Shown: positions 3,387 to 16,011 of the stretch, piece after piece
Numbering within the stretch: the stretch's first letter is position 1
Layout of the letters: each line of letters begins with the position of its first letter
Assembly: GCA_040754655.1 (NCBI GenBank)
Contig: JBFMCE010000065.1
Coordinates: 1-21,703, forward strand
Direction of reading: 5' to 3'
Length of the DNA: 21,703 bases
Origin: Bdellovibrionota bacterium
Lineage (GTDB): Bacteria > Bdellovibrionota > UBA1018 > UBA923
Notes under the pieces: model-generated
Database searches by the model: none
The model's input: only the letters and a program-made list of their open reading frames with translations
Told to the model about the DNA's origin: nothing
Position numbers and translations under genes: made by a program

Positions 3387-6300
3387 TCACCAAGGATCTA
3401 GCGTCGGGTTTTGCCTGAAGAACCATTCCATTCCCTCACGATCAAGCACATCGGCGTCGAGGATATTTCCCTTTAAGTCTGTGAGAATGTATTTACGGTG
3501 TAATGGCCGGCTTACCATGTCGTCTGTGATTTCTATGTAGGCCCAACATGTTTTGCCGTTCATCCTGACCAAATAGCGCCTATAGGTCGCGGCTCCGGCG
3601 GCCGCCCCAATTTTAGCGTTCTTTACAATGATTTTGAGTTTAGCCGACAGTTCCGCGAGTTTCCTAATGTCTGGTTTCATGCCTCCACCATACACGCCGA
3701 ACATGTCACGCCATTTCCAGGCGTTTTTTGCGCCACTTAAATCTTGGGTTGTAACCGTCAAGTCTTCCCCAGCTATCGAAACGAGCAAGTTATCGGAAGA
3801 ATCTCCGCCTTTCTTTTCAGAAAGCAGAATAAGGTTGTTTGCCGCGCCAACGCCCATAATTCCAGAAATTGCAGCCGCCGCGGTAACTCCCCAGCTACCT
3901 GCTTGAGCGCCGGCCCTGCCGCCGCCACCAGCGGTCGCATAGGCAGGTTGTAGGCCTGGTCCGCCTGGACGAATATTTTTTAGCTGCCGGTGTAGGTCAG
4001 CTACTGATATAACGGCGATCGTCTTGGTCATGTCCTCCCATCCCGCAAAATAAGCGGGCACGAAATCAGGACTTGGTTCGACAATGTTCACGCCGATCAT
4101 TCCGGAAGAGAAAGCATCGACGGCGGCGCAAATCGAACCCGCCGTGTAGTTTACGCTATCAAAGGTATCCATCCGCGCTGTGTATTGGAGAATTTCATAT
4201 GTGCTCGAACCCCAGCCGGGTACGAGGGGAGCATGTCCTGAAGGATCATTGAACTTCACGGGGTTGTTCAAGACATAAGCATGACGGTTGTAGCCCTGAA
4301 GGTTAAAACCATCGCCTGGAATCTCAGTATCCGCCGTCAAGAACCGAGCGATGGAAGGATCGTAATACCTTGCCTTGAAGTAAATCAGCCCAATCTCTTG
4401 GTCGCTTTCTTGACCAGTGAACTGAGTCGTAACCGTGTCGTAGCCCAAGCTATGGTTGTAATCGATTTCGCCCCATGGCGTGTACAGATAGCGCGTGGCA
4501 GGAGCGCCTGTATTGTTGGTTACCACTGAAGTCGATTTCAAGTTGTCGCCATGCAAGAACCACTTGTTGCCGTACGGAGAACCGCGGTGGTTATTGCCCG
4601 TCATTGAGCTTGACGCTCCGGCCATCACTGTCGATGCGCTCGGCAGGCCCGTCAAGGTAGCTGTTACGTCTGCGTAAATACGCCCCACTCCCGGGGCATC
4701 GAAGTGATAAGTGCCATTCACTTCAGTATTGCCGTTTACGACCTGTTCTCTTCTTTCATAGTTCGGACCATAGTAATAAGTGGTGATCTGTCCACCGGTC
4801 GATGGATAATAGATCTTCTTCACTCTTTCGCCAGCGAAGTTGTAAACCACGTCAAGCACTCTCAAACCATTCCTGAAAACGGCGATCAGCTCGTTGTTTT
4901 CGCTATAATTATAGCTCCAAAGCGCGTTTGGCGTTGATTTCGATGTTACGTTACCCACGGCATTGTGATGGGTTCTCGAAACCTCCGTGGTAATGCCGCC
5001 TATTTGAGTCTCGCCAACCCAGTCCCAGCCTGAAGCCGGAGGGTTCGTCTCTCTTCGGAAACTGACATTGCCTTTTTTTGTCATGTTCCCGATAGAGTCA
5101 TAATCGTAAGGCACCGGCGTCGATTGCCAGGCCCTTGCCGAACTCTTCAACCGATTGACGGCGTCGTAGTCGAAGTCATGAGTCTCGTCCGTATTGATGC
5201 CGTTGACCACCTTCGCGCTGGAAGAGCGGCGATCGACGATGCGTTCAATATTTTTGATTTCATCGTATTCATACTGCAGGTCTTGAAGCACCGTATTCGC
5301 GCTGTTTTTAACGACGATCGTGTCAATCATATCGTCGTCAGGGCGGTAAGTGTAATCGGTCGTGGCCTGAATGATGGAATTGGTTTGGTGCGTCTTCTTT
5401 TTACCTGGTCTTCCTAGGGCATCAAAGTTCTCAAGCGTGAGTATATTCCCACCGGCAAGCGTGGCGTTGGTGAGGTTGCCTGCTTTAGAATATTTATAAC
5501 CGTAAATCAGTCCCCCTGGCAGGGTCTTTCGAATCAAACGGCGTTTGTAGTCGTAGGCGTAAGATTCTCCCAGTCTCTGCGTCGATCCGCCAATGGTCGT
5601 GTACTTATTGGTCACTTCGCCGGCTTGGTTGTATCGAAACTCGGTTTTCGCAGATTGCGTGCCATCGGTCGTTTCAACGACCTCGCCGAGCCTGCCAAGT
5701 GAATAACTTTCGTTTATTAAATCATAGTTGTAGACGGCCTGATAATTTCTCGAGAACGATGAATGAGTCTTTAGCTTGACGCGATCTAATTCGTCGTATT
5801 GATAGTTAGTGACTCTGCCTGTGCTGTCATCAAGATAGGTGGTCACATTGCCGATGTCATCATAAGTGTAAGCTCTGGTGCCGACATTAGTATCTATAGA
5901 GCCGACCAGCCTGCCCCAGCTGTCGAACTGCATGGTTGTCGTGCCTTTTCCATCTGGCAAGGTGATGAGGCGCAACCGGCTGGCATCATCATAGCCGTAA
6001 GAGATCGTCTTGCCCTGGGCGTCGGTCACGGATACAGCGGATCCAAATTCATCGAATAGGAACGAGGAGCTTTGTCCTTTTCCATTGGTGACGGTCACGC
6101 GGTTGGGTTGATACGTATAAGTTCTTAGGGTCTCTGAGATCGTGCTTCCGCTCATTCGGTAAACAGCGGTTGGTCTGCCGGATGTGTCGTAAGCTACTTT
6201 AATCGTCGGAACATTCAATGCCGCGCTTTGAAAGTGCGGTCTAGTGTAATACGCTTCGCGACTTGTTCCAGTATACTGATACCAGTTCTGCGTCACGATT

Positions 6301-9300
6301 GGATCACCTACGTTGTCACTTTCGGACTCTGTTCTATAGTTCATCCCGAAACCGTCCGTGTATTCACGAATTAAACGCGTGACAGGCGTAGAGCCGTTTA
6401 GTCCTACGGCCATCGTACGCTCTCGGCGTTGGGTAAAAGGATTGCCTTGATTCAAATAGGCGTACGTCTCAAATCCTCCATTGGGGAAATCGATTCGTGA
6501 CTCTCTCCCCATATGGTCATATTGAGTCGTTGTTTGAGCGCCATTTTGATCTGTGACGCGCCAAGTTCTGCCGGCAAAGTCATGGTCATAAGTCGTTGTG
6601 AGCTCACGAAGCCCCCCGGAATAACCTCCTTGGGTTACTCGCTTAGTGCTCGTTGCCAGGTAAGTCCTAAAATCGGTATCATAAGTGGTGCTGGTTACTC
6701 TGTCGAGCGCGTCGGTGACGTTGAGCTGATTGCCATAAAGGTCGAGCTGCCTGTTCTTCTCAGTGCGCACCCATCTTGTGTTGGGTGACGAGCAAACACC
6801 GGCGTTATCGCAAAAACAGTTGGTCGCATCTTTGCACAAGACCTTATCTACATGTTCGATATAACGGTTCTGCGGTTCGTAGATATACTTCTCCCAAGCA
6901 AGGATCAGGTTGTTTGAAGTATGCTTGAGCCTGGTGCCCGTCACTCTATGTAAGTTCCAGTTGGTCGCATCGTTCTCGTAAGAGGTGGTGGTCTCTATAC
7001 AATGTGTGCCGACGCAGGAGACGTCACTGATCACTCCGCCATAAGAATCATAATTGTAGTCAGACTGGTGGGTGGCAAGAAGTGTCGAGTTTTCGTAGGT
7101 TCTTTTCGTGGTTCCAGTTTTTCGGATAAACTTCACGCCTGGAATGGTTTGAATTTGATCGAAGTAAACCCAGTTCTTTTCCACCAGGTACTCGTCACCG
7201 TTATAAATCTCTTGCTCGGCAAGAAGCCCCTGAAAAGGCCGGTGCAGATAGTAGTTAGAGATATCAGAGGTGTTGGTCTGCTGGTCTACGGCAGTAAAAT
7301 ACTCAAAGCCGAGATCCGACCTCTCAAGCATCGGCCCATAATTGTATCGGCCGTTATCATAAGTGTATTCCGAGCCATGAGTCGTGCTGTGCCCGTTGAA
7401 GAGCGCCATGGTCTTGGTTAATAGCCTGTAGCTTGAATTAACCCCGCCGCAGTCTTCATTTTGCCTTAACTGCGCAGAACAACCGGCATTGCCAGGGGTG
7501 ATGGCTCCTAGCATTTTTGATGCGTGTTCATACGATACCGTCACGCTTCCACCGAGGCTGTTTAAAGAGCTGGTAATGACATCGGGTTTAGCGCTATTGG
7601 AATAAGCGATCTTTATCGGGTGGTAGTTCGTTGGGTTTGCGCCGTTGATCATGACTACTTCTGAGATGCCGTCACCATTGATGTCGCCAGTTTTCACTCC
7701 CACAAAATGGGAATAGAGATTGGTACCAAAGCAATAGACGCAATTAGACTCTGAAGGGGCGCTTCCGTCAGTGAGCGCCGTAAGCGGCCCAAGACCGGTT
7801 TCCGTACCTAAGGCATAGTGAAGGATCACTCCCGGAGAGGCATTGCCTCTGAATGCCGAGATCAAATCGGCTCTACCGTCGCCATTGATATCGGCCATCG
7901 TATGATTGAAGAGATTTGTTCCCTCAGGGCCGTCGACAGTGCCGGTGCTGCTATTGGTGTGTACGACAAAAATTGTGGTCGCGCCTTTGGTCGAGCCAAG
8001 CATGGTTTGAATCTTAGTGCCTGCATGGCCCCTATAAACAGAGACGACGTCTTCAGCGCCATCTCCATTGATATCAGCCATCAGGTTATTCCACGTCGCT
8101 GTACGAATTGATTGCGAGTGGGGTACAGACTCATTTGTGGCGGTTGCATTGAAGGGCACATTAGGATCCGCGATCACAGTATGGGTTTGGCCAAAGAGAT
8201 CGGAATTGGTCGTTCCAGGCGCCCCACCAAACATATTCATGACATTGGTGACATCAGGAACGAACATCGTGTTCGAGATTAAGCTTCCATTCCAGGCGGT
8301 GGCTACATGATAGCCGCGATGCATGACATACACGTCTGACTTTTGATCGCCATTCGTGTCGCCTACAACTAGCTGCACCGGGTGAAGGGCGTGGTTCAAC
8401 ATTCCGGTGTCTCGAAAGACGACGTTTGTAGAAAGTCCTTGGTCGGTTCCAGGAAGATAGTCGAAATTCAGCCGGCCATTGCTGCCACTGTTGTAACCAA
8501 CGGCTAAGTCAGCCCGGCCATCGCCATTGAAGTCGCCTACAAAAGCCCCCCTGATTTGACGGGTATAATTGGCAGCCAGGCCCATCGATGGCGCTTGCAC
8601 GAAAGAGCCGAAGTTCGTACCAAGCGACATTAGGTAATAGGTGAGGCGCAACTCAGAATGATAAAAAACAAGATCTGTTTTTTGATCGGCGTTGATGTCG
8701 GTCGGAAGCACTTGCCACATGGGTGTATTTGTATACCAGTTCCAGTTGGCTGTTAAGGCGGGCCCGTTTTGAAGTGAGCCTAAACCGTTCGAGTTGCCTA
8801 GGCAAAACTTCACGTTAAAACCGTTGTTTGCGGAGAAAACCAGGATCAGGTCTTTAATTCCGTCTGCATTGATATCACCCAAGTGAGAAGAGTAATACTG
8901 CATCGGCCCCATGTTATTGCCGTGCGTGGCCGGGTGAGTGACTACTGATCCGAGTTTGCCGTTCGTTCCCGAAAGGGCATACTGAATTTTTCGGCCGCCT
9001 AGGCCTTGGAACGCGCCGACTAAGTCATCCTTGCCGTCGCCGTTGATGTCGCCTAAATGATATCCGTCTATTCTGATCAAGTCGTCGAAATCGAGCCCGG
9101 AGTCTTCTAATGCGCCGATTGCACCGGAAGACGTATCCCAAGTAAATGTTTGCGCTGGCGGCGCGACGCTCTCCGAATCGTTTGATCCGATCGTTTGAAT
9201 CGAAGCCAGTTGAGTTTTTTGACTGACAGGGCTCTGAACATAGACAAACTTATAGCGACGGACCAGCAAACCCTTTGATTTAACCCTGATGTTCAAGAGA

Positions 9301-10172
9301 CGGTTCTTATAATTCTCTGGAACTGGTGTCGCATCGCTTCTGGTCTGATACTCGAATTCCACGGTACGCAGTGAGGCGAACGTTGTGGTGGTGTGCTTGG
9401 TGTAAGTGATGACTTGCGGAAGCACATCGCCATTGTAGTTGGCATAGGTGATATCGAAATAGTTTCCAAACTTGTCGACAACCTTATAAAGGTGCCAGCG
9501 GTAAATGCCGCGAGCAAAGGCGGTTCCAAAGTTCGTCTCCCAGGTAGCTGGGTACTGTGTTTGACCGCCCAACCCTGAGTGGTGAGAAGCGTCTCCGCCG
9601 AAGTAATACGTGTTTCCCGAACCATCGCGCATTTCCCAATAACAAGGCCCGTTGTTGCATTGGCCATGTGCGATGAAACGTTTCCAAGATTCGGTAGCCG
9701 TGCGATAGGTATTTCCGCCTTGGACTTCGCTTACGAAGCGCTCGCTTGGATTCGCAAGGCCTGAGCCATTGGAATTGAATGCAAAAGAATCTGCTGATGT
9801 GTAACGAACGCCGTTCCCGATGTTTACACGATCAATGGAGGGCAAGCCTGCCAAGTGAAAGCCCATGCCCAAAAGCCCACTGCCACTTTGCGAATCATAC
9901 TGAACAGAAAGATTGGGTTGCACCCCTTTTCGTCCGGCTGGCACATCAATGGGCAATGAATAAGCGAATGACCCGCGCGGGGTGACGGTGAAAGTGCCGC
10001 CAGGCGATTGAAGCTCTTTTGCAGTAGCTCCTTTGATCAGCGGGTCTGAGAGGATGTCTCCAGAGCTCGGGGCCGCCGCCGCAGTGATTTCGTTGTTCCC
10101 TTCTTGGGAATAAACAAGCGCAGAAGTCAGGCAACCTACGAACAAAACAAATGCGATCGATCGAAATCTCAT
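3387..10172 (-). CDS. Secreted RHS/YD-repeat polymorphic toxin with SpvB-like N-terminus and FG-GAP/VCBS repeats (TcB-TcC-like fusion)
   Basis: N-terminal signal peptide ([22 protein letters not shown]). SpvB-like '[35 protein letters not shown]'. Eight DxNxD(G/Q) repeats and many YD repeats. RHS core '[27 protein letters not shown]...[12 protein letters not shown]' followed by a ~281-aa C-terminal region. GAGGA RBS at 10179-10183. Confidence 0.93.
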   Translation of the reverse strand: [2261 protein letters not shown]

Positions 10173-11199: not shown

Positions 11200-11248
11200 A
11201 ACGATCTTTGAAACAAAATCAGATTCCAGAGACGACGACCTCTGGCCG

Positions 11249-11282
11249 CCAGCCCGTTAACTCAACGGACTGGGGTTTATTT
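11249..11282 (+). terminator. Rho-independent terminator-like hairpin after tpm
   Basis: CCAG-C-CCGTT/AACTC/AACGG-A-CTGG followed by GGTTTATTT. A second hairpin CCAGAG/CTCTGG lies at 11226-11245. Confidence 0.55.
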
Positions 11283-11290
11283 ACTTATAA

Positions 11291-11382
11291 AATTGGCTCA
11301 GGGGGAAGGTGAGTCGATCCACCACCCTAAACTCCTGACGTTGAGATGGAATTCGGTTTTATAAACCAATCAGAGAACTGAT
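11291..11382 (+). repeat. Left copy of a 92-bp imperfect inverted repeat flanking the sulfur cassette
   Basis: Aligns without gaps to the reverse complement of 15780-15871 at 64/92 positions. The first 12 nt (AATTGGCTCAGG) are identical. Confidence 0.85.
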
Positions 11383-11703
11383 TTGCGATACATTGGGGTA
11401 CTGAGCAATCTGAGCCTGATATCTGTCGCTGCACTTTTGCTCTTGGTCACCACTTCCTTTGCTGGAGACAAAGATAAGAAGTCAGAAGTCGACAATGATC
11501 TCAAAGCCCATATTGAGATGCACGAGAAAACGGCGAAAGCTCACGAACGGACCGCCGAGTGCCTAAAAGATGGCAAACCAGTCGACGAATGCCGCGCAGA
11601 ATTCAGAAAAGCCCGCCCGGGCGATGGCCAAGGTTGTGGAATGGGGATGGCTCCAGGACACGGCCGAGGCATGGGTAAAGGCAGAGGTAAGCGGACTCAA
11701 TAG
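11383..11703 (+). CDS. Small secreted hypothetical protein with a Cys pair and His/Met/Gly-rich segments
   Basis: Hydrophobic signal-like N-terminus ending 'TTSFA', helical 'HIEMHEKTAKAHERTAECLKDGKPVDECRAEF' and tail 'GCGMGMAPGHGRGMG'. The TTG start is uncertain. Confidence 0.7.
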   Translation: MRYIGVLSNLSLISVAALLLLVTTSFAGDKDKKSEVDNDLKAHIEMHEKTAKAHERTAECLKDGKPVDECRAEFRKARPGDGQGCGMGMAPGHGRGMGKGRGKRTQ

Positions 11704-11750: not shown

Positions 11751-11785
11751 TTGACATATTAGTATTTTATAATATACTGATATGT
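11751..11785 (+). promoter_or_regulatory. Sigma70 promoter overlapped by a 32-bp palindromic operator upstream of the ArsR regulator
   Basis: TTGACA (11751-11756), 16-bp spacer, TATACT (11773-11778). Imperfect palindrome ACATATTAGTATTTTA/TAATATACTGATATGT at 11754-11785 (14/16 pairs). Confidence 0.8.
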
Positions 11786-12085
11786 ATGATAGACGAGCAA
11801 CTTGCGAAAAGAGCAGAAGAAGTAAGCGCGGTCCTAAAGCAACTGGCTCATCCAGATCGATTGAAAGTTTTGTGCGGCCTTTTAGAGAAAGAAAAAACGG
11901 TCTCTGAACTGGTCAATTATGCAAAATCTTCTCAATCCTGGGTGTCGCAGTTCCTTGCTCGAATGAAGCTTGAGGGCATGGTTGATTCGAGAAAAGAAGG
12001 AAACTTCGTCTACTATCGAATCGCTGACCCTAAGATCAAAGAACTGATGCGTGCGATTTATAAAACGTACTGTAAAAAGGAGTGA
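11786..12085 (+). CDS. ArsR/SmtB-family repressor of BigR/SqrR/YgaV type (persulfide sensor)
   Basis: 'LKQLAHPDRLKVLCGL...SQSWVSQFLARMKLEGMVDSRKEGNFVYYRI...IYKTYC'. Has a Cys in helix 2 and a C-terminal YC, the two-Cys signature of this subfamily. Heads a sulfur operon. Confidence 0.9.
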   Translation: MIDEQLAKRAEEVSAVLKQLAHPDRLKVLCGLLEKEKTVSELVNYAKSSQSWVSQFLARMKLEGMVDSRKEGNFVYYRIADPKIKELMRAIYKTYCKKE

Positions 12086-12088
12086 GTC

Positions 12089-12631
12089 ATGAGTGAAGTC
12101 ATTTTAGATGTCAGAGAAAGAGACGAGTTTGAGGCAGAGCACATTGAGGGCTCGATCAACATTCCGCTCTCTCACTTTATGTCGGTGGCTCCCGGTGTGC
12201 TAAATCAGCTTCGAGACAAGAATGTCACCGTCATGTGCCGAAGCGGTAATCGCGCAAAACTTGCTGCCGGCGATATTGCAAAAATGGGCTACGCCGACAA
12301 AGTGACTGCCATAGTCTTTGAAGGCGGCATTCTTGAATGGAAAAAACAGGGAAAACCAACTGTCGTAAAGCGCAAAGGGCATTTGCCGATCTTACGTCAG
12401 GTACAACTCATCGCAGGAGCCTTAGTCTTTACCAGCACAATGCTTGGTGCATTCATTAGCCCCTGGTTTCTTGCTGTCAGCGCGTTCGTTGGCGCGGGAT
12501 TAATGGTTGCCGGAAGCACTGGCTTCTGCGGAATGGCTCAACTTCTCGCGTTCATGCCTTGGAATAAAACCCTGCTAGAAACCAAAGAAGAGCTCTGTCA
12601 GGTCAGTCCTAAATCAGGATGCTGTGAGTAA
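12089..12631 (+). CDS. Rhodanese domain fused to a DUF2892 membrane domain (YgaP-like)
   Basis: 'ILDVRERDEFEAEHIEGSINIPL', active loop CRSGNR, then 'ILRQVQLIAG...FVGAGLMVAGSTGFCGMAQLLAFMPWN'. AAGGAG RBS. Confidence 0.9.
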   Translation: MSEVILDVRERDEFEAEHIEGSINIPLSHFMSVAPGVLNQLRDKNVTVMCRSGNRAKLAAGDIAKMGYADKVTAIVFEGGILEWKKQGKPTVVKRKGHLPILRQVQLIAGALVFTSTMLGAFISPWFLAVSAFVGAGLMVAGSTGFCGMAQLLAFMPWNKTLLETKEELCQVSPKSGCCE

Positions 12632-12642
12632 AGGAGAATTTT

Positions 12643-13374
12643 ATGAATACGATTGTAAAAGATATCAGAGAGATCATCAAAGATGACTCCACTCTTCCTA
12701 AAGGCTGGCAAGCCAAAGTCATCATTAACGACGACAATATGACTTATGTCGTATGGAACGAAAACACGAAAGAAGCGCTGATCGTCGATCCTATGCGTGA
12801 AGACTGGGAGACGCTTGTTTCGATCGCAATGAAGGACTTGAAGGAGTATCGCTTTCTCGCTGTGGTCGATACACACACCCACGCTGACCACATCTCGTGT
12901 GCTGCGAATTTGGCTAACGAACTTAAAGTTCCGCTCATTCAGCACGTGCTTAGCCCAAGCAAACGCATTCACTTGCGTGTGAGTCAAGACACAGCCTTGC
13001 CAACGGCGGCTGGCCCACTAAAGTTCTTAGTTACGCCAGGACACACCGCCGAGTGCATCACGCCAATCTGGGGCCCGTTTCTATTTGGAGGCGACATGCT
13101 TCTCTATGGCGATACAGGGCGCGATGATCTGCCAGGTGGTGATCCCGAAGCCCACTGGGAAAGCATTCAGAAGATCAAAACCCATGTCACTCCAGAGACG
13201 CTTGTTCTTCCTGGTCACGATGGCGAAGGCGGCAGAGCTTCAAGCTGGAAACACCAACTTGAAATCAGCCCGGGTTTAAAGCAAGACAAACCAACCTTCA
13301 TCAAAGACGCGGGTTCCTATGTTGGACCATCGCCAAGAATATTGAAGGAGTCGCTTTATGAAAACTTCAAATAG
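12643..13374 (+). CDS. MBL-fold persulfide dioxygenase (ETHE1/PDO-like)
   Basis: THTHADH, TPGHT, LFGGD, GRDDLPGGD, LPGHD and a PDO-like C-terminal 'PSPRILKESLYEN'. Rhodanese/TauE gene context. Confidence 0.85.
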   Translation: MNTIVKDIREIIKDDSTLPKGWQAKVIINDDNMTYVVWNENTKEALIVDPMREDWETLVSIAMKDLKEYRFLAVVDTHTHADHISCAANLANELKVPLIQHVLSPSKRIHLRVSQDTALPTAAGPLKFLVTPGHTAECITPIWGPFLFGGDMLLYGDTGRDDLPGGDPEAHWESIQKIKTHVTPETLVLPGHDGEGGRASSWKHQLEISPGLKQDKPTFIKDAGSYVGPSPRILKESLYENFK

Positions 13375-13693
13375 CTCTATCAACATCAACTCTCTTCACG
13401 GACGTGTGAAAGAGCTTGGGAAAAAAGAGGTTGTTCTCGACGTAAGGAGTCGCGAGGAATACATGGATGGCCATGTCCCAGGCTCGATCAATATTCCGCG
13501 TGATGAAGTCGCCCGATACGCAGCCAAGCTCAAGTCGTATGATAGAATCTACGTTCATTGTCAGGCCGGCAAGCGCGCCCAATTGGCGTTCGCAGACCTC
13601 GAGAAGCAAGGTCTCACCAATCTTGTATGCGTGACAGGTGGCGGAATGGCCGACTGGATAGAGGCTGGTTACGAAATCGACAAAGGAGCATGA
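13358..13693 (+). CDS. Single-domain rhodanese (sulfurtransferase)
   Basis: 'VLDVRSREEYMDGHVPGSINIP', active loop CQAGKR, 'GGMADWIEAGY'. AAGGAG RBS; 17-bp overlap with the upstream gene. Confidence 0.92.
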   Translation: MKTSNSSININSLHGRVKELGKKEVVLDVRSREEYMDGHVPGSINIPRDEVARYAAKLKSYDRIYVHCQAGKRAQLAFADLEKQGLTNLVCVTGGGMADWIEAGYEIDKGA

Positions 13694-13700
13694 AAAGCTC

Positions 13701-14471
13701 ATGATCGCTCTTGGATATTTTGGAGCTGCAGTGATGGGGGTGACCCTTGGCCTCCTTGGTGGTGGAGGGTCCATTTTAGCAGTACTCATCTTCGCTTACC
13801 TCTTCAATGTTTCAGCTACAGCAGCGACGTATTATTCGCTATTTATCGTGGGAGTTTGTTCCGCAATCGGTGTTATTCCTTTCGCTCAAAGAAGATTGGT
13901 TGAAGTCAAAACGGCGCTTTTGTTCTTTGTCCCAGCAGCTATAGGTGTTTTTTTCTCGAGACGAATTATCCTGCCAAGGCTTCCAGAAAACAAAGATATG
14001 ATCATATTGGTAGCTTTTGCCATCGTTATGCTTGCAGCTTCATGGTCGATGATTCGAAAGAAGGCACCCGCAAAAATTCATATGAAAAAGAACCACTTGG
14101 GGCGCATCACTTTAAACGGCGTTGGTGTCGGTATTGCCACCGGCTTTGTTGGTGCAGGAGGTGGCTTTCTCATCGTCCCTGCACTAGTAAATGGCATTGG
14201 CCTCTCCATGGAAAAAGCCGTTGGCACTTCGTTATTTATCATCGCACTCAATTCATTGTCAGGATTTACAGGCGATTTAATTGCAGGAATACCTGTTCAA
14301 TGGAACTTAGTGCTCCCATTTTTGTGTGTCGCGCTTGTTGGGATGGTGGCTGGAACTCACCTTAATCGTTTCGTATCGAGTATTAAGCTTAAGTCAATAT
14401 TCGGATGGTTTGTATTGACTCTTGGATCACTTATAATCATCAAGCAGTTCTTAGAACTAACTGACTTTTGA
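13701..14471 (+). CDS. TauE/SafE family sulfite exporter
   Basis: Duplicated motifs 'GLLGGGGSIL' and 'GFVGAGGGFLIVPAL...AVGTSLFII', with about 8 hydrophobic segments. Confidence 0.92.
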   Translation: MIALGYFGAAVMGVTLGLLGGGGSILAVLIFAYLFNVSATAATYYSLFIVGVCSAIGVIPFAQRRLVEVKTALLFFVPAAIGVFFSRRIILPRLPENKDMIILVAFAIVMLAASWSMIRKKAPAKIHMKKNHLGRITLNGVGVGIATGFVGAGGGFLIVPALVNGIGLSMEKAVGTSLFIIALNSLSGFTGDLIAGIPVQWNLVLPFLCVALVGMVAGTHLNRFVSSIKLKSIFGWFVLTLGSLIIIKQFLELTDF

Positions 14472-14485
14472 ACTAAGATTCAATA

Positions 14486-15718
14486 ATGAGCCATGCAAAT
14501 ACCGTTATCAGTTTAGGGCTTAAGGAAAACCTTCTACAGTTTTCGCTTTTGGTCATCGTCAATGCGTTCGTTGGCGCCATGATCGGTATGGAGCGAAGCA
14601 TACTGCCGGCCCTTGCTGAACAAGAGTTTCATCTTGCGGCAAAAGCTGGGATTCTTTCATTTATTGTTATTTTCGGGTTAACAAAGGCTTTCACAAATTA
14701 TTTTGCAGGCCGATTATCAGATAACCTTGGAAGAAAAGTCGTTCTAATCGCTGGTTGGATCGTTTCGATTCCCGTCCCCTTTTTGCTGATGTGGGCGCCA
14801 AGCTGGAATTGGATATTATTTGCTAACCTCTTGCTCGGAATCGGCCAGGGCCTGACCTGGTCTACGACGGTGATAATGAAAATCGATCTCGTGGGCTCGA
14901 AACAACGAGGTCTTGCCATGGGCCTAAACGAATTTGCGGGATACTTCGCTCTTTCGTTGTCTGCGTTAGCAACTGGTTATCTCGCAGATCACTTCGGCCT
15001 TCGACCGCAACCATTTTATCTCGGAGTGGGCTACGTTGCTTTTGGACTAGCGATAAGCCTGCTTCTTGTGCGTGAGACCGTCGGACATGTAAGGCACGAG
15101 TCGACCAAGTCAGCCCCAGAAACGACAAAACTAACCCACAGACAGATCTTTTTTAAAACATCTTTTCAAGATCGCGACCTGTCTTCAATCACTCAAGCAG
15201 GCCTTGTGAATAATTTGAACGACGGAATGGCTTGGGGTTTATTTCCGATGCTCTTTGCGGCTTCAGGGCTTGAATTAAAGAGCATTGGAATCCTTGCTGC
15301 TATTTACCCTGCGACATGGGGTTTGACCCAGCTTTGGACGGGGCATCTGTCAGATAGCTTTGGCAGAAAATGGATGATCGCATTCGGCATGTGGGTTCAA
15401 GCAATCGGAATTGCCATTACCGCTATTTCTACATCGATGTTAAGTTTTTCAATCGGCGCGGTTCTTTTGGGAATTGGGACTGCGATGGTTTATCCAACTC
15501 TGTTGGCAGCAATCGGTGACGTCACCCACCCGAGTTGGCGAGGCTCGGCTGTAGGCATCTATCGACTATGGCGGGACGCAGGTTATGCCTTTGGAGCTCT
15601 TATCGCAGGATTTACCGCTGATTATTTTGGCGCCACTACCGCTGTATGGCTAGTCGCAGCTATCACTACGCTGTCCGGTATTGTGGTTGCTCTGCGCATG
15701 AGAGAGACATTAAAATGA
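14486..15718 (+). CDS. MFS transporter
   Basis: About 12 hydrophobic segments. MFS motif A occurs twice ('GRLSDNLGRK', 'GHLSDSFGRK'). Confidence 0.92.
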   Translation: MSHANTVISLGLKENLLQFSLLVIVNAFVGAMIGMERSILPALAEQEFHLAAKAGILSFIVIFGLTKAFTNYFAGRLSDNLGRKVVLIAGWIVSIPVPFLLMWAPSWNWILFANLLLGIGQGLTWSTTVIMKIDLVGSKQRGLAMGLNEFAGYFALSLSALATGYLADHFGLRPQPFYLGVGYVAFGLAISLLLVRETVGHVRHESTKSAPETTKLTHRQIFFKTSFQDRDLSSITQAGLVNNLNDGMAWGLFPMLFAASGLELKSIGILAAIYPATWGLTQLWTGHLSDSFGRKWMIAFGMWVQAIGIAITAISTSMLSFSIGAVLLGIGTAMVYPTLLAAIGDVTHPSWRGSAVGIYRLWRDAGYAFGALIAGFTADYFGATTAVWLVAAITTLSGIVVALRMRETLK

Positions 15719-15779
15719 TAATTTTTGCTGCCCATCTCTAGCTACAAACAGGTCGTTTGAGTATCTCGGAGTATCGGTC

Positions 15780-15871
15780 ATCAGTTGCCTAACTGATTGA
15801 TACTATGAAATTCCGTTTTCATGTCAGGTGGTCGGTGTGTTGGATCGTAACGCCCTCCTCCTGAGCCAATT
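15780..15871 (-). repeat. Right copy of the 92-bp imperfect inverted repeat flanking the sulfur cassette
   Basis: Reverse complement AATTGGCTCAGGAGGAGGGCGTTACGATCCAACAC...AACTGAT aligns ungapped with 11291-11382 (64/92). Confidence 0.85.
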
Positions 15872-15876
15872 AAAAT

Positions 15877-15915
15877 AAAAACCCTCAGATTCAGTAATGA
15901 TTCTGGGGGTTTTTT
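15877..15915. terminator. Bidirectional Rho-independent terminator between the convergent MFS and USP genes
   Basis: AAAAACCCTCAGA-T-TCA/GTAA/TGA-T-TCTGGGGGTTTTTT, with an A-tract before and a T-tract after the stem. Confidence 0.8.
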
Positions 15916-16011
15916 GTTTTCAGAGTTTTATCAGATCAGTTTGTCCCAGCCTCTCCCAGCCGGTCAGAATTTTGCGCTTCGATTCGAGAAGATAAAGATC
16001 AAATCAAAACT

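Follow-up and report, generated by a model that had tools for sequence, protein, structure and literature searches.

According to the Islander report (PMC4383910), a genomic island restores the tRNA gene that it has split, and the displaced fragment of that gene marks the far end of the island. The sublocations of Williams (2002), as summarised in a second report (bioRxiv 10.1101/2020.11.02.365908), describe an integrase subfamily as keeping its sublocation while changing the tRNA that it uses. The DNA analysed here (hereafter, the window) is a stretch of 21,703 nt from a Bdellovibrionota bacterium in which two hairpins, each with a GCCA tail, had been noticed and proposed to be a small CCA-ended RNA, a folded single-stranded recombination substrate or a degenerate remnant of an att site at a tRNA 3' end. 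The last of these options is supported by a match to the host tRNA-Asn gene. We conclude with good confidence that both hairpins are the core-proximal tips of two att arms of ∼150 nt each, belonging to islands whose integrase uses the 3' end of a tRNA gene, here tRNA-Asn(GTT). They are not a new RNA; they are leftover att sites, an ordinary kind of mobile-DNA scar. The feature was correctly seen in the preliminary description, but it was over-read, and the system is of a known kind.

Both 45-nt strings, as they had been parsed, matched the window letter for letter, the right hairpin at 15824-15868 on the plus strand and the left hairpin at 11294-11338 on the minus strand (read 11338-11294). 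The inner palindromes that had been claimed were also found: AATCAG-AGAA-CTGATT in the left arm (11368-11383) and ATCAGTT-N4-AACTGAT in the right arm (15780-15797, plus strand), the latter being conserved in part of the family only. The two hairpins are homologous (69% over a 101-nt alignment) and therefore resemble each other more than would be expected by chance. The folds drawn for them were borne out for the right copy but not for the left one. The RNA fold of the right hairpin was computed at -18.1 kcal/mol (z = -2.68), a value equalled by 2 of 200 shuffled sequences, and its DNA fold gave z = -1.68. For the left hairpin, 34 of 200 shuffles were equally good (RNA fold, z = -0.91; DNA fold, z = -0.74) and the TCAGG/CCTGA helix was absent from the minimum-energy RNA fold. 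Both repeats had furthermore been said to point outward into a terminator. On the right this is a clear intrinsic terminator of the textbook type (A-run, hairpin and T-run; 15872-15919), which starts 4 nt past the hairpin and whose arms (15872-15893 and 15898-15919) are 82% complementary and precede the T-run. It is of the same type as the one found in relatives between tRNA-Asn and a convergent integrase gene, and homologous terminators follow tRNA-Asn as well as other arm copies. On the left, the minus strand past the hairpin carries a further hairpin (11249-11275) and a site that is terminator-like (11245-11226); the stretch that holds them (11226-11275), outside the left core, also lies at the end of the TPMT gene, which is on the plus strand.

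The whole genome to which the window belongs was scanned with ARAGORN, which called 41 tRNA genes; all of the tRNA 3' ends printed for this genome encode CCA. Its sole tRNA-Asn(GTT) gene is located on contig C92 (c[7191,7265]), starts with TCAGGAGT and ends with CCCTCCTCCTGAGCCA. The last 16 nt of the right hairpin (15853-15868, plus strand) are identical to the 3' end of this gene at 16 of 16 positions, comprising the 3' strand of the T-stem, the 3' strand of the acceptor stem, the discriminator G (G73) and CCA, and the 17th nucleotide is mismatched. An exact match to a host tRNA 3' end had been named in the preliminary description as the observation that would turn the repeats from something new into ordinary att remnants, and a 16-nt match of this kind is what the right hairpin has. 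The 16-mer is found three times in the genome (in tRNA-Asn, in the right hairpin and in a copy on contig C119), against 0.0018 occurrences expected, and exactly the same 16-mer ends 14 of 25 arm copies across the order. The left hairpin has the last 9 nt and the first 8 nt in common with tRNA-Asn; upstream of these last 9 nt, the positions of the 16-nt block do not all match the tRNA. tRNA-Asn accounts for the whole CCTGA-GCCA string, which consists of its acceptor 3' strand, its discriminator and its CCA. The tRNA-Asn locus itself (C92, L148, 2061-7265) consists of the intact gene followed by genes for a D12-class adenine methylase, a NotI-family endonuclease and an IS21-type transposase; it has no integrase, and the sequence past its CCA is unlike that of all arm copies.

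When the right and left copies, the C119 copy and three copies from relatives were aligned, the homologous stretch was found to begin at the CCA and to cover ∼150 nt on its inner side. A covariance model built on sequence only (R1, 150 positions) matched the two copies of the window at 93-98 bits. The right att arm, of the P-arm type, forms with its core a conserved unit that occupies 15723-15871 of the plus strand (98.4 bits; aligned with five other copies), and the left arm and core, inverted with respect to the right ones, occupy 11291-11430 of the minus strand (93 bits). The unit comprises, in this order, a GCTACAA box, two GTAT(C) repeats, a partly conserved palindrome, an A/T-rich stretch with GAAATTCC, the ATCARGAGNTTRG motif, a variable palindrome centred on GGATC(G), the tRNA-identical block and then ATT or TTT. 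The TCAGG of the closing helix corresponds to the first bases of the ATCARGAGNTTRG motif. The GTAT(C) repeats, direct and ∼10 nt apart (15760-15776, plus strand, in the right arm), fall in the most conserved columns of the arm and have the conserved form GTAT-N-GTATCG; sequence and alignment place GTAC/GTAT direct repeats at 11385-11406 of the minus strand in the left arm. We infer that these repeats are likely to be the arm-type sites of the integrase and that ATCARGAGNTTRG is likely to be the site of a bending protein; the motif on the TCAGG side presumably fits the IHF consensus. In the five copies for which the spacing was measured by hand (right, left and three of relatives), the GGATC centre precedes the tRNA-identical block by 6 nt.

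Matches to R1 were present in 17 of the 116 genomes of the order. A loose gapped-motif scan of the genome collection, which gave at least 120 matches in unrelated taxa and in coding DNA, apparently by chance, was set aside. The copies of the arm usually form same-strand arrays downstream of a tRNA gene: on five of the six contigs with at least two nearby copies (three copies on G114:C72, five on G050:C35, two on G071:C160, two on G077:C3 and three on G005:C2) all are on the same strand, the exception being the contig of the window. The G005 copies are located 50-60 kb downstream of tRNA-Asn on its strand, and in G003:C31 an intact tRNA-Asn gene is followed after 1.75 kb, with a PIN-toxin gene in between, by a copy in direct orientation. 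In G003:C31, G114:C72, G006:C114 (Ser) and G053:C145 (Arg), an intact tRNA gene stands upstream in direct orientation, with the island in between. On the inner side of the arm, the adjoining genes vary from copy to copy (MFS, P-type ATPase and Fic in the three cases read), and the island regions that were fetched hold mostly defence genes, namely restriction-modification, AbiE, HipA, Fic, GmrSD and Schlafen-type genes.

Some 100-200 nt past the CCA, beyond the terminator, there is a convergent gene for a tyrosine integrase of ∼415 amino acids. The enzymes of this family match phage integrase families and consist of a catalytic domain, a SAM-like core-binding domain and ∼95 further N-terminal residues; the family is found in 15 of the 116 genomes of the order and is represented by intact genes in G114, G008, G050, G006, G071, G053, G068 and G115. 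The G114 enzyme has 416 amino acids (L198:4960-6210; PF00589 at 2.8e-16) and the G008 enzyme, 54% identical to it, has 413 (L207:2755-3996). The integrase of G003 is broken and belongs to the same family (64% identity over the last 97 residues), as does a fragment of 173 amino acids on C119 in the genome of the window (L149:5658-6179; PF00589 at 5.6e-12; 32% identity). An integrase or integrase fragment adjoins only ∼3 of the ∼12 copies whose outer flank was examined; an ORF beside one of the G077 copies was considered and rejected, since it is not an integrase.

Nine integrase loci were scanned for tRNA genes. At four of them an intact convergent tRNA gene lies 115-208 nt from the end of the integrase gene: tRNA-Asn in G071 and G114, tRNA-Ser(GCT) in G006 and tRNA-Arg(ACG) in G053. 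No intact tRNA was present within the fetched stretch at the other five, where we found a contig end (one locus), a 47-nt fragment of tRNA-Asn (one), an arm copy (one) or nothing (two). At G008:C203 (L207, 4091-4123), the native tRNA-Asn locus keeps its upstream acyltransferase gene and is followed by an intact integrase gene; of the tRNA itself only the 3' 47 nt can be recognised, and no gene is called there by ARAGORN. The integrase at tRNA-Ser(GCT) (G006:C114; L236, L184) is 65% identical to the G114 enzyme, and an island of ∼8.6 kb on this contig has, at its far end, a distal arm whose last 17 nt are those of tRNA-Ser. Similarly, the integrase at tRNA-Arg(ACG) (G053:C145; L240, L181) is 51% identical to the G114 enzyme, and the distal arm at the end of an island of ∼5 kb on the same contig ends in 17 nt of tRNA-Arg. 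One integrase family thus has three tRNA targets, and in all three target types identity with the tRNA starts at about position 60/61. The repeat of the Yersinia high-pathogenicity island is 17 bp long.

The use of different tRNAs by one family bears on the claim that structure rather than sequence is conserved in the closing helix and its GCCA tail, a claim that does not survive the comparison. In the arms of G006 and G053 the 5' motif is still of the ATCAR..GGTTAG type, although it cannot pair there: the 45 upstream nucleotides, in G006 (Ser) as in G053 (Arg), contain no complement to the new acceptor strand, and in the folds of both arms this strand and the CCA are unpaired. Because the 5' motif is kept without pairing in the Ser and Arg relatives, the TCAGG/CCTGA helix with its GCCA tail is not a conserved structure; one side of this helix reads as tRNA gene sequence and the other as a motif kept for its own sake.

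The apical stem had been claimed to stay paired while its sequence changes, and for this part the outcome was divided. In 25 copies (one truncated, one near-duplicate and one diverged copy having been left out beforehand), the seven variable nucleotides that precede the constant block were compared for pairing with their own 5' region and with the 5' regions of other copies, and their own was on average the better partner: the mean longest Watson-Crick run was 3.32 against 2.69, a value reached by 2 of 20 000 permutations. When G-U pairs were allowed in the same test, 322 of 20 000 permutations reached the observed value. Perfect stems of unrelated sequence are present in G115 and G114b (7 pairs) and in G114a and G008 (6 pairs). 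Moreover, the 5' arm follows the target tRNA and is matched to the start of the tRNA block whichever of the three tRNAs is used (Asn, GGG/CCC; Ser, GAGA/TCTC; Arg, AAAGG/CCTTT). These three observations are what speaks for a reading in which the hairpin is needed as a folded structure, either as a cruciform or as a single strand in the manner of attC and CTX-phage attP, and is rebuilt for each target tRNA. It would then be a mimic of the T-arm, read by the integrase next to the crossover, a reading that refines rather than contradicts the identification of the hairpins as att sites. The formal counts, however, are close to their controls. In a structure-fitted alignment of 22 copies, paired cells amounted to 67.3% against 65.4% in shuffles (30 of 500 reached the observed figure), and the covariation score of 0.145 against 0.126 (40 of 500) was exceeded when the alignment was slid by one column (0.184). 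Fold z-scores averaged -1.1 and were below -2 in 4 of 26 copies, and hardly any stem is seen in G003, G068 and G077a. In addition, a dimeric protein site on duplex DNA explains the palindrome as well as a folded strand does. We therefore regard the need for a folded hairpin as unlikely. It is similarly doubtful that the GGATC-centred palindrome is a T-arm mimic that is required as a structure and adjusted to the T-stem strand whenever a new tRNA is adopted; if this were true, the mimic would be a built-in way to retarget the integrase, and the mode of recognition, duplex or cruciform, would be one not described for tRNA-targeting integrases. The short palindrome beside the core is real but weakly kept, running into the tRNA-identical block and changing with the target tRNA.

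The same observations weigh on the possibility that the elements are transcribed and act either as small tRNA-like RNAs that end in CCA or as signals for 3'-end processing, for example as substrates of RNase P or of the CCA enzyme on the operon mRNA. The right hairpin folds well and belongs to the 3' untranslated region of an operon on the plus strand, with the terminator 4 nt further on, as such a function would have it. The left hairpin, however, is antisense to its neighbours and folds no better than shuffled sequences, and neither the acceptor strand nor the CCA has a partner in the relatives that use tRNA-Ser and tRNA-Arg. That the elements are not tRNAs, as had been stated, was confirmed, with ARAGORN calling no gene in the window and Rfam returning no match at the gathering score. 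The loop does not carry a T-loop sequence and the stems, which are bulged, total 14-16 bp, the stem of a tRNA minihelix being 12 bp. The CCA is explained by the tRNA gene, as it is encoded in the tRNA 3' ends printed for this genome. Nor is the helix kept by compensatory change: the relatives at tRNA-Ser and tRNA-Arg have lost the closing helix, and the count over the whole structure is no better than the controls. A function as RNA is thus extremely improbable.

In the mechanism that we propose, an integrase with three domains, of the tyrosine family, would insert genomic islands into the 3' end of a tRNA gene, in this case tRNA-Asn(GTT). Strand exchange would take place in the tRNA-identical segment of 16-17 nt, most likely, as we infer, at its left edge, and the terminator outside the core would be the one that, in intact islands, stands between the rebuilt tRNA and the integrase gene convergent with it. 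In the copies G114b, G050c and G050d the arm and the palindrome are retained and similarity ends after CCCTCCT, an indication that exchange occurs at the left edge of the block. In these three copies (G114:C72, L194:1582-1628; G050:C35, L188 and L195) the sequence past CCCTCCT is unrelated and lacks the CCA; exchange with secondary sites may have produced them. For the right element of the window, the stretch 15849-15998 (plus strand) is 97.3% identical to 6322-6173 of C119, where it abuts an integrase pseudogene, and it can be regarded as a remnant of the integrase-side (P') arm. This match and the integrase-side terminator together indicate that the right element is a junction of arm, core and integrase side; it would be a junction such as forms between tandem islands, from which the integrase has since been lost. 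In the genome of the window (an assembly that is 90% complete), the C119 fragment is the only integrase of the family that was found. Since this single integrase is broken, the left and right elements are probably immobile fossils in this genome.

The two elements are inverted, not direct, in the window, and neither a tRNA gene (ARAGORN) nor an integrase is present on its contig. These points count against the mechanism, as do the mismatches of the left copy within the 16-nt block, the small share of copies with an adjoining integrase and the five integrase loci with no intact tRNA in the stretch fetched. They bracket seven plus-strand ORFs, six of which encode the proteins of an operon (11786-15718, plus strand): an ArsR-family regulator, a rhodanese-YgaP protein, a protein of the metallo-beta-lactamase (MBL) fold, a rhodanese, a TauE exporter and an MFS transporter. 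The best promoter-like site of the region is at 11751-11778, and the ArsR-rhodanese/YgaP-MBL-rhodanese-TauE-MFS operon looks like a unit for sulfide or persulfide stress. Upstream of this promoter-like site, an ORF of 106 amino acids (11383-11703) starts inside the left arm; it has a start resembling a signal peptide and no Pfam match. A minus-strand ORF of 2261 amino acids is located at 3387-10172.

An inverted similarity of ∼100 nt at both ends of a 4.4-kb block of genes that are all on the plus strand, together with a second inverted pair on C119, could suggest that the elements are the terminal inverted repeats of a single non-autonomous transposon or invertible segment carrying the sulfur operon. 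Several observations argue against this. The two elements are not each other's closest relatives: the left one is closest to a copy in G008:C288 (75.5%; the gene next to that arm on its inner side is a Fic gene) and the right one to copies in G114 and G068 (∼70%), while left and right share 65.7%. Being nearer to copies in other genomes than to each other, they represent two lineages of element. Reading of the sequences revealed no target-site duplication in the flanks of either, no transposase is encoded between them, and elsewhere the arm is single or in same-strand arrays. It is thus very unlikely that they delimit one transposon. For two att arms of separate origin, the facing arrangement may be the result of two insertions and a deletion, or of recombination between att sites; both are possible. 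An inversion deduced from the synteny of TPMT and the operon was considered and rejected, as the G002 case is too weak: homologues of TPMT (∼40-43%) adjoin an ArsR-rhodanese-MBL operon in G002 only, in divergent orientation.

The second inverted pair, which is convergent, is found on C119 (L149) at 5092-6350. Its first element is a truncated arm just past a P-type ATPase gene, with 39 nt that are 92% identical to the right arm of the window; next come the 173-amino-acid fragment of the tyrosine integrase and a full copy that shares the outer 150 nt of the right element at 97%. Compared in sequence, the right element looks like the product of an exchange between the two types of site on C119, and the convergent pair hints at a shuffling of att sites behind the arrangement seen in the window.

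Whether the bracketed operon was carried by an island is in doubt, because the ArsR-rhodanese-MBL operons of relatives have no such arms flanking them. The MBL protein of the operon is 65-71% identical to proteins in genomes of other families and 50-60% to those of its own family, which is suggestive of a transfer. The right flank (Usp, TPR and an ORF of 186 amino acids) is conserved at 68-77% in three genomes of one genus, and the DNA beyond Usp differs in each of these three genomes, with no tRNA and no arm in it; the right flank (Usp, TPR) is native chromosome common to a sister genus.

The analysis removes a candidate from the list of new RNAs, and it appears that an att site derived from a tRNA can pass for a covarying minihelix when the raw sequence is read. 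At the same time it defines, in an order of Bdellovibrionota, a previously unannotated family of islands characterized by an integrase of ∼415 amino acids, an arm of ∼150 nt and a tRNA core of 16-17 nt. The family uses at least three tRNA genes, and the island regions fetched are rich in defence systems. It also gives precise island boundaries for the annotation of these genomes, and the Asn, Ser and Arg sites constitute a small natural series in which target change by an integrase can be studied. No title or abstract start in the literature searched on Bdellovibrio and tRNA integrase islands and on integrase sublocations describes it; within the literature so covered, it is an island family not yet described in predatory bacteria.

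Among structures that the hairpins call to mind, the acceptor/T-arm minihelix of tRNA has in common with them a stem, a loop and a single-stranded GCCA tail; here, however, the loop is not that of a T-arm, the stem has bulges and a greater length, and it is a tRNA gene that provides the sequence of the tail and 3' strand. Integron attC sites and the folded attP of CTX phage are recombination sites that keep complementarity rather than sequence. The likeness to them lies in the complementarity of the arms, whereas here sequence motifs are strongly conserved, formal covariation is not significant and the recombinases that adjoin the arms are integrases of the phage type. Among the genes seen in the fetched loci there was no integron integrase, no cassette array and no filamentous phage.

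The closest resemblance is to tRNA-linked islands. With the asn-tRNA islands of Enterobacteriaceae, such as ICEKp and the Yersinia high-pathogenicity island, as they are presented in bioRxiv 10.1101/2020.11.02.365908, the family has in common tRNA-Asn as a hot spot and the formation of arrays. With respect to the sublocations treated in the same report, a block that runs from about position 60/61 to the CCA and a single integrase family with targets in Asn, Ser and Arg genes fit the rule; the block, however, starts at the boundary of T-loop and T-stem and has a palindrome of its own on the island side, so that it falls cleanly neither into the symmetric T-loop class nor into the asymmetric 3'-end class as these are presented there. 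What sets the family apart from the known tRNA islands is its host phylum, Bdellovibrionota, an integrase without a Pfam arm-binding domain, an arm of ∼150 nt that is conserved across families of the order, a palindrome that abuts the core, the prevalence of defence genes in the regions fetched and, in the window, ends that are inverted and orphaned. The islands described in the Islander report (PMC4383910) resemble it in the tyrosine integrase adjacent to the tRNA, the restored 3' end and the short repeat of the tRNA at the far end. The system formed by the arm and its integrase works like, and by most of its defining features is, a tRNA-linked island system of the Islander type.
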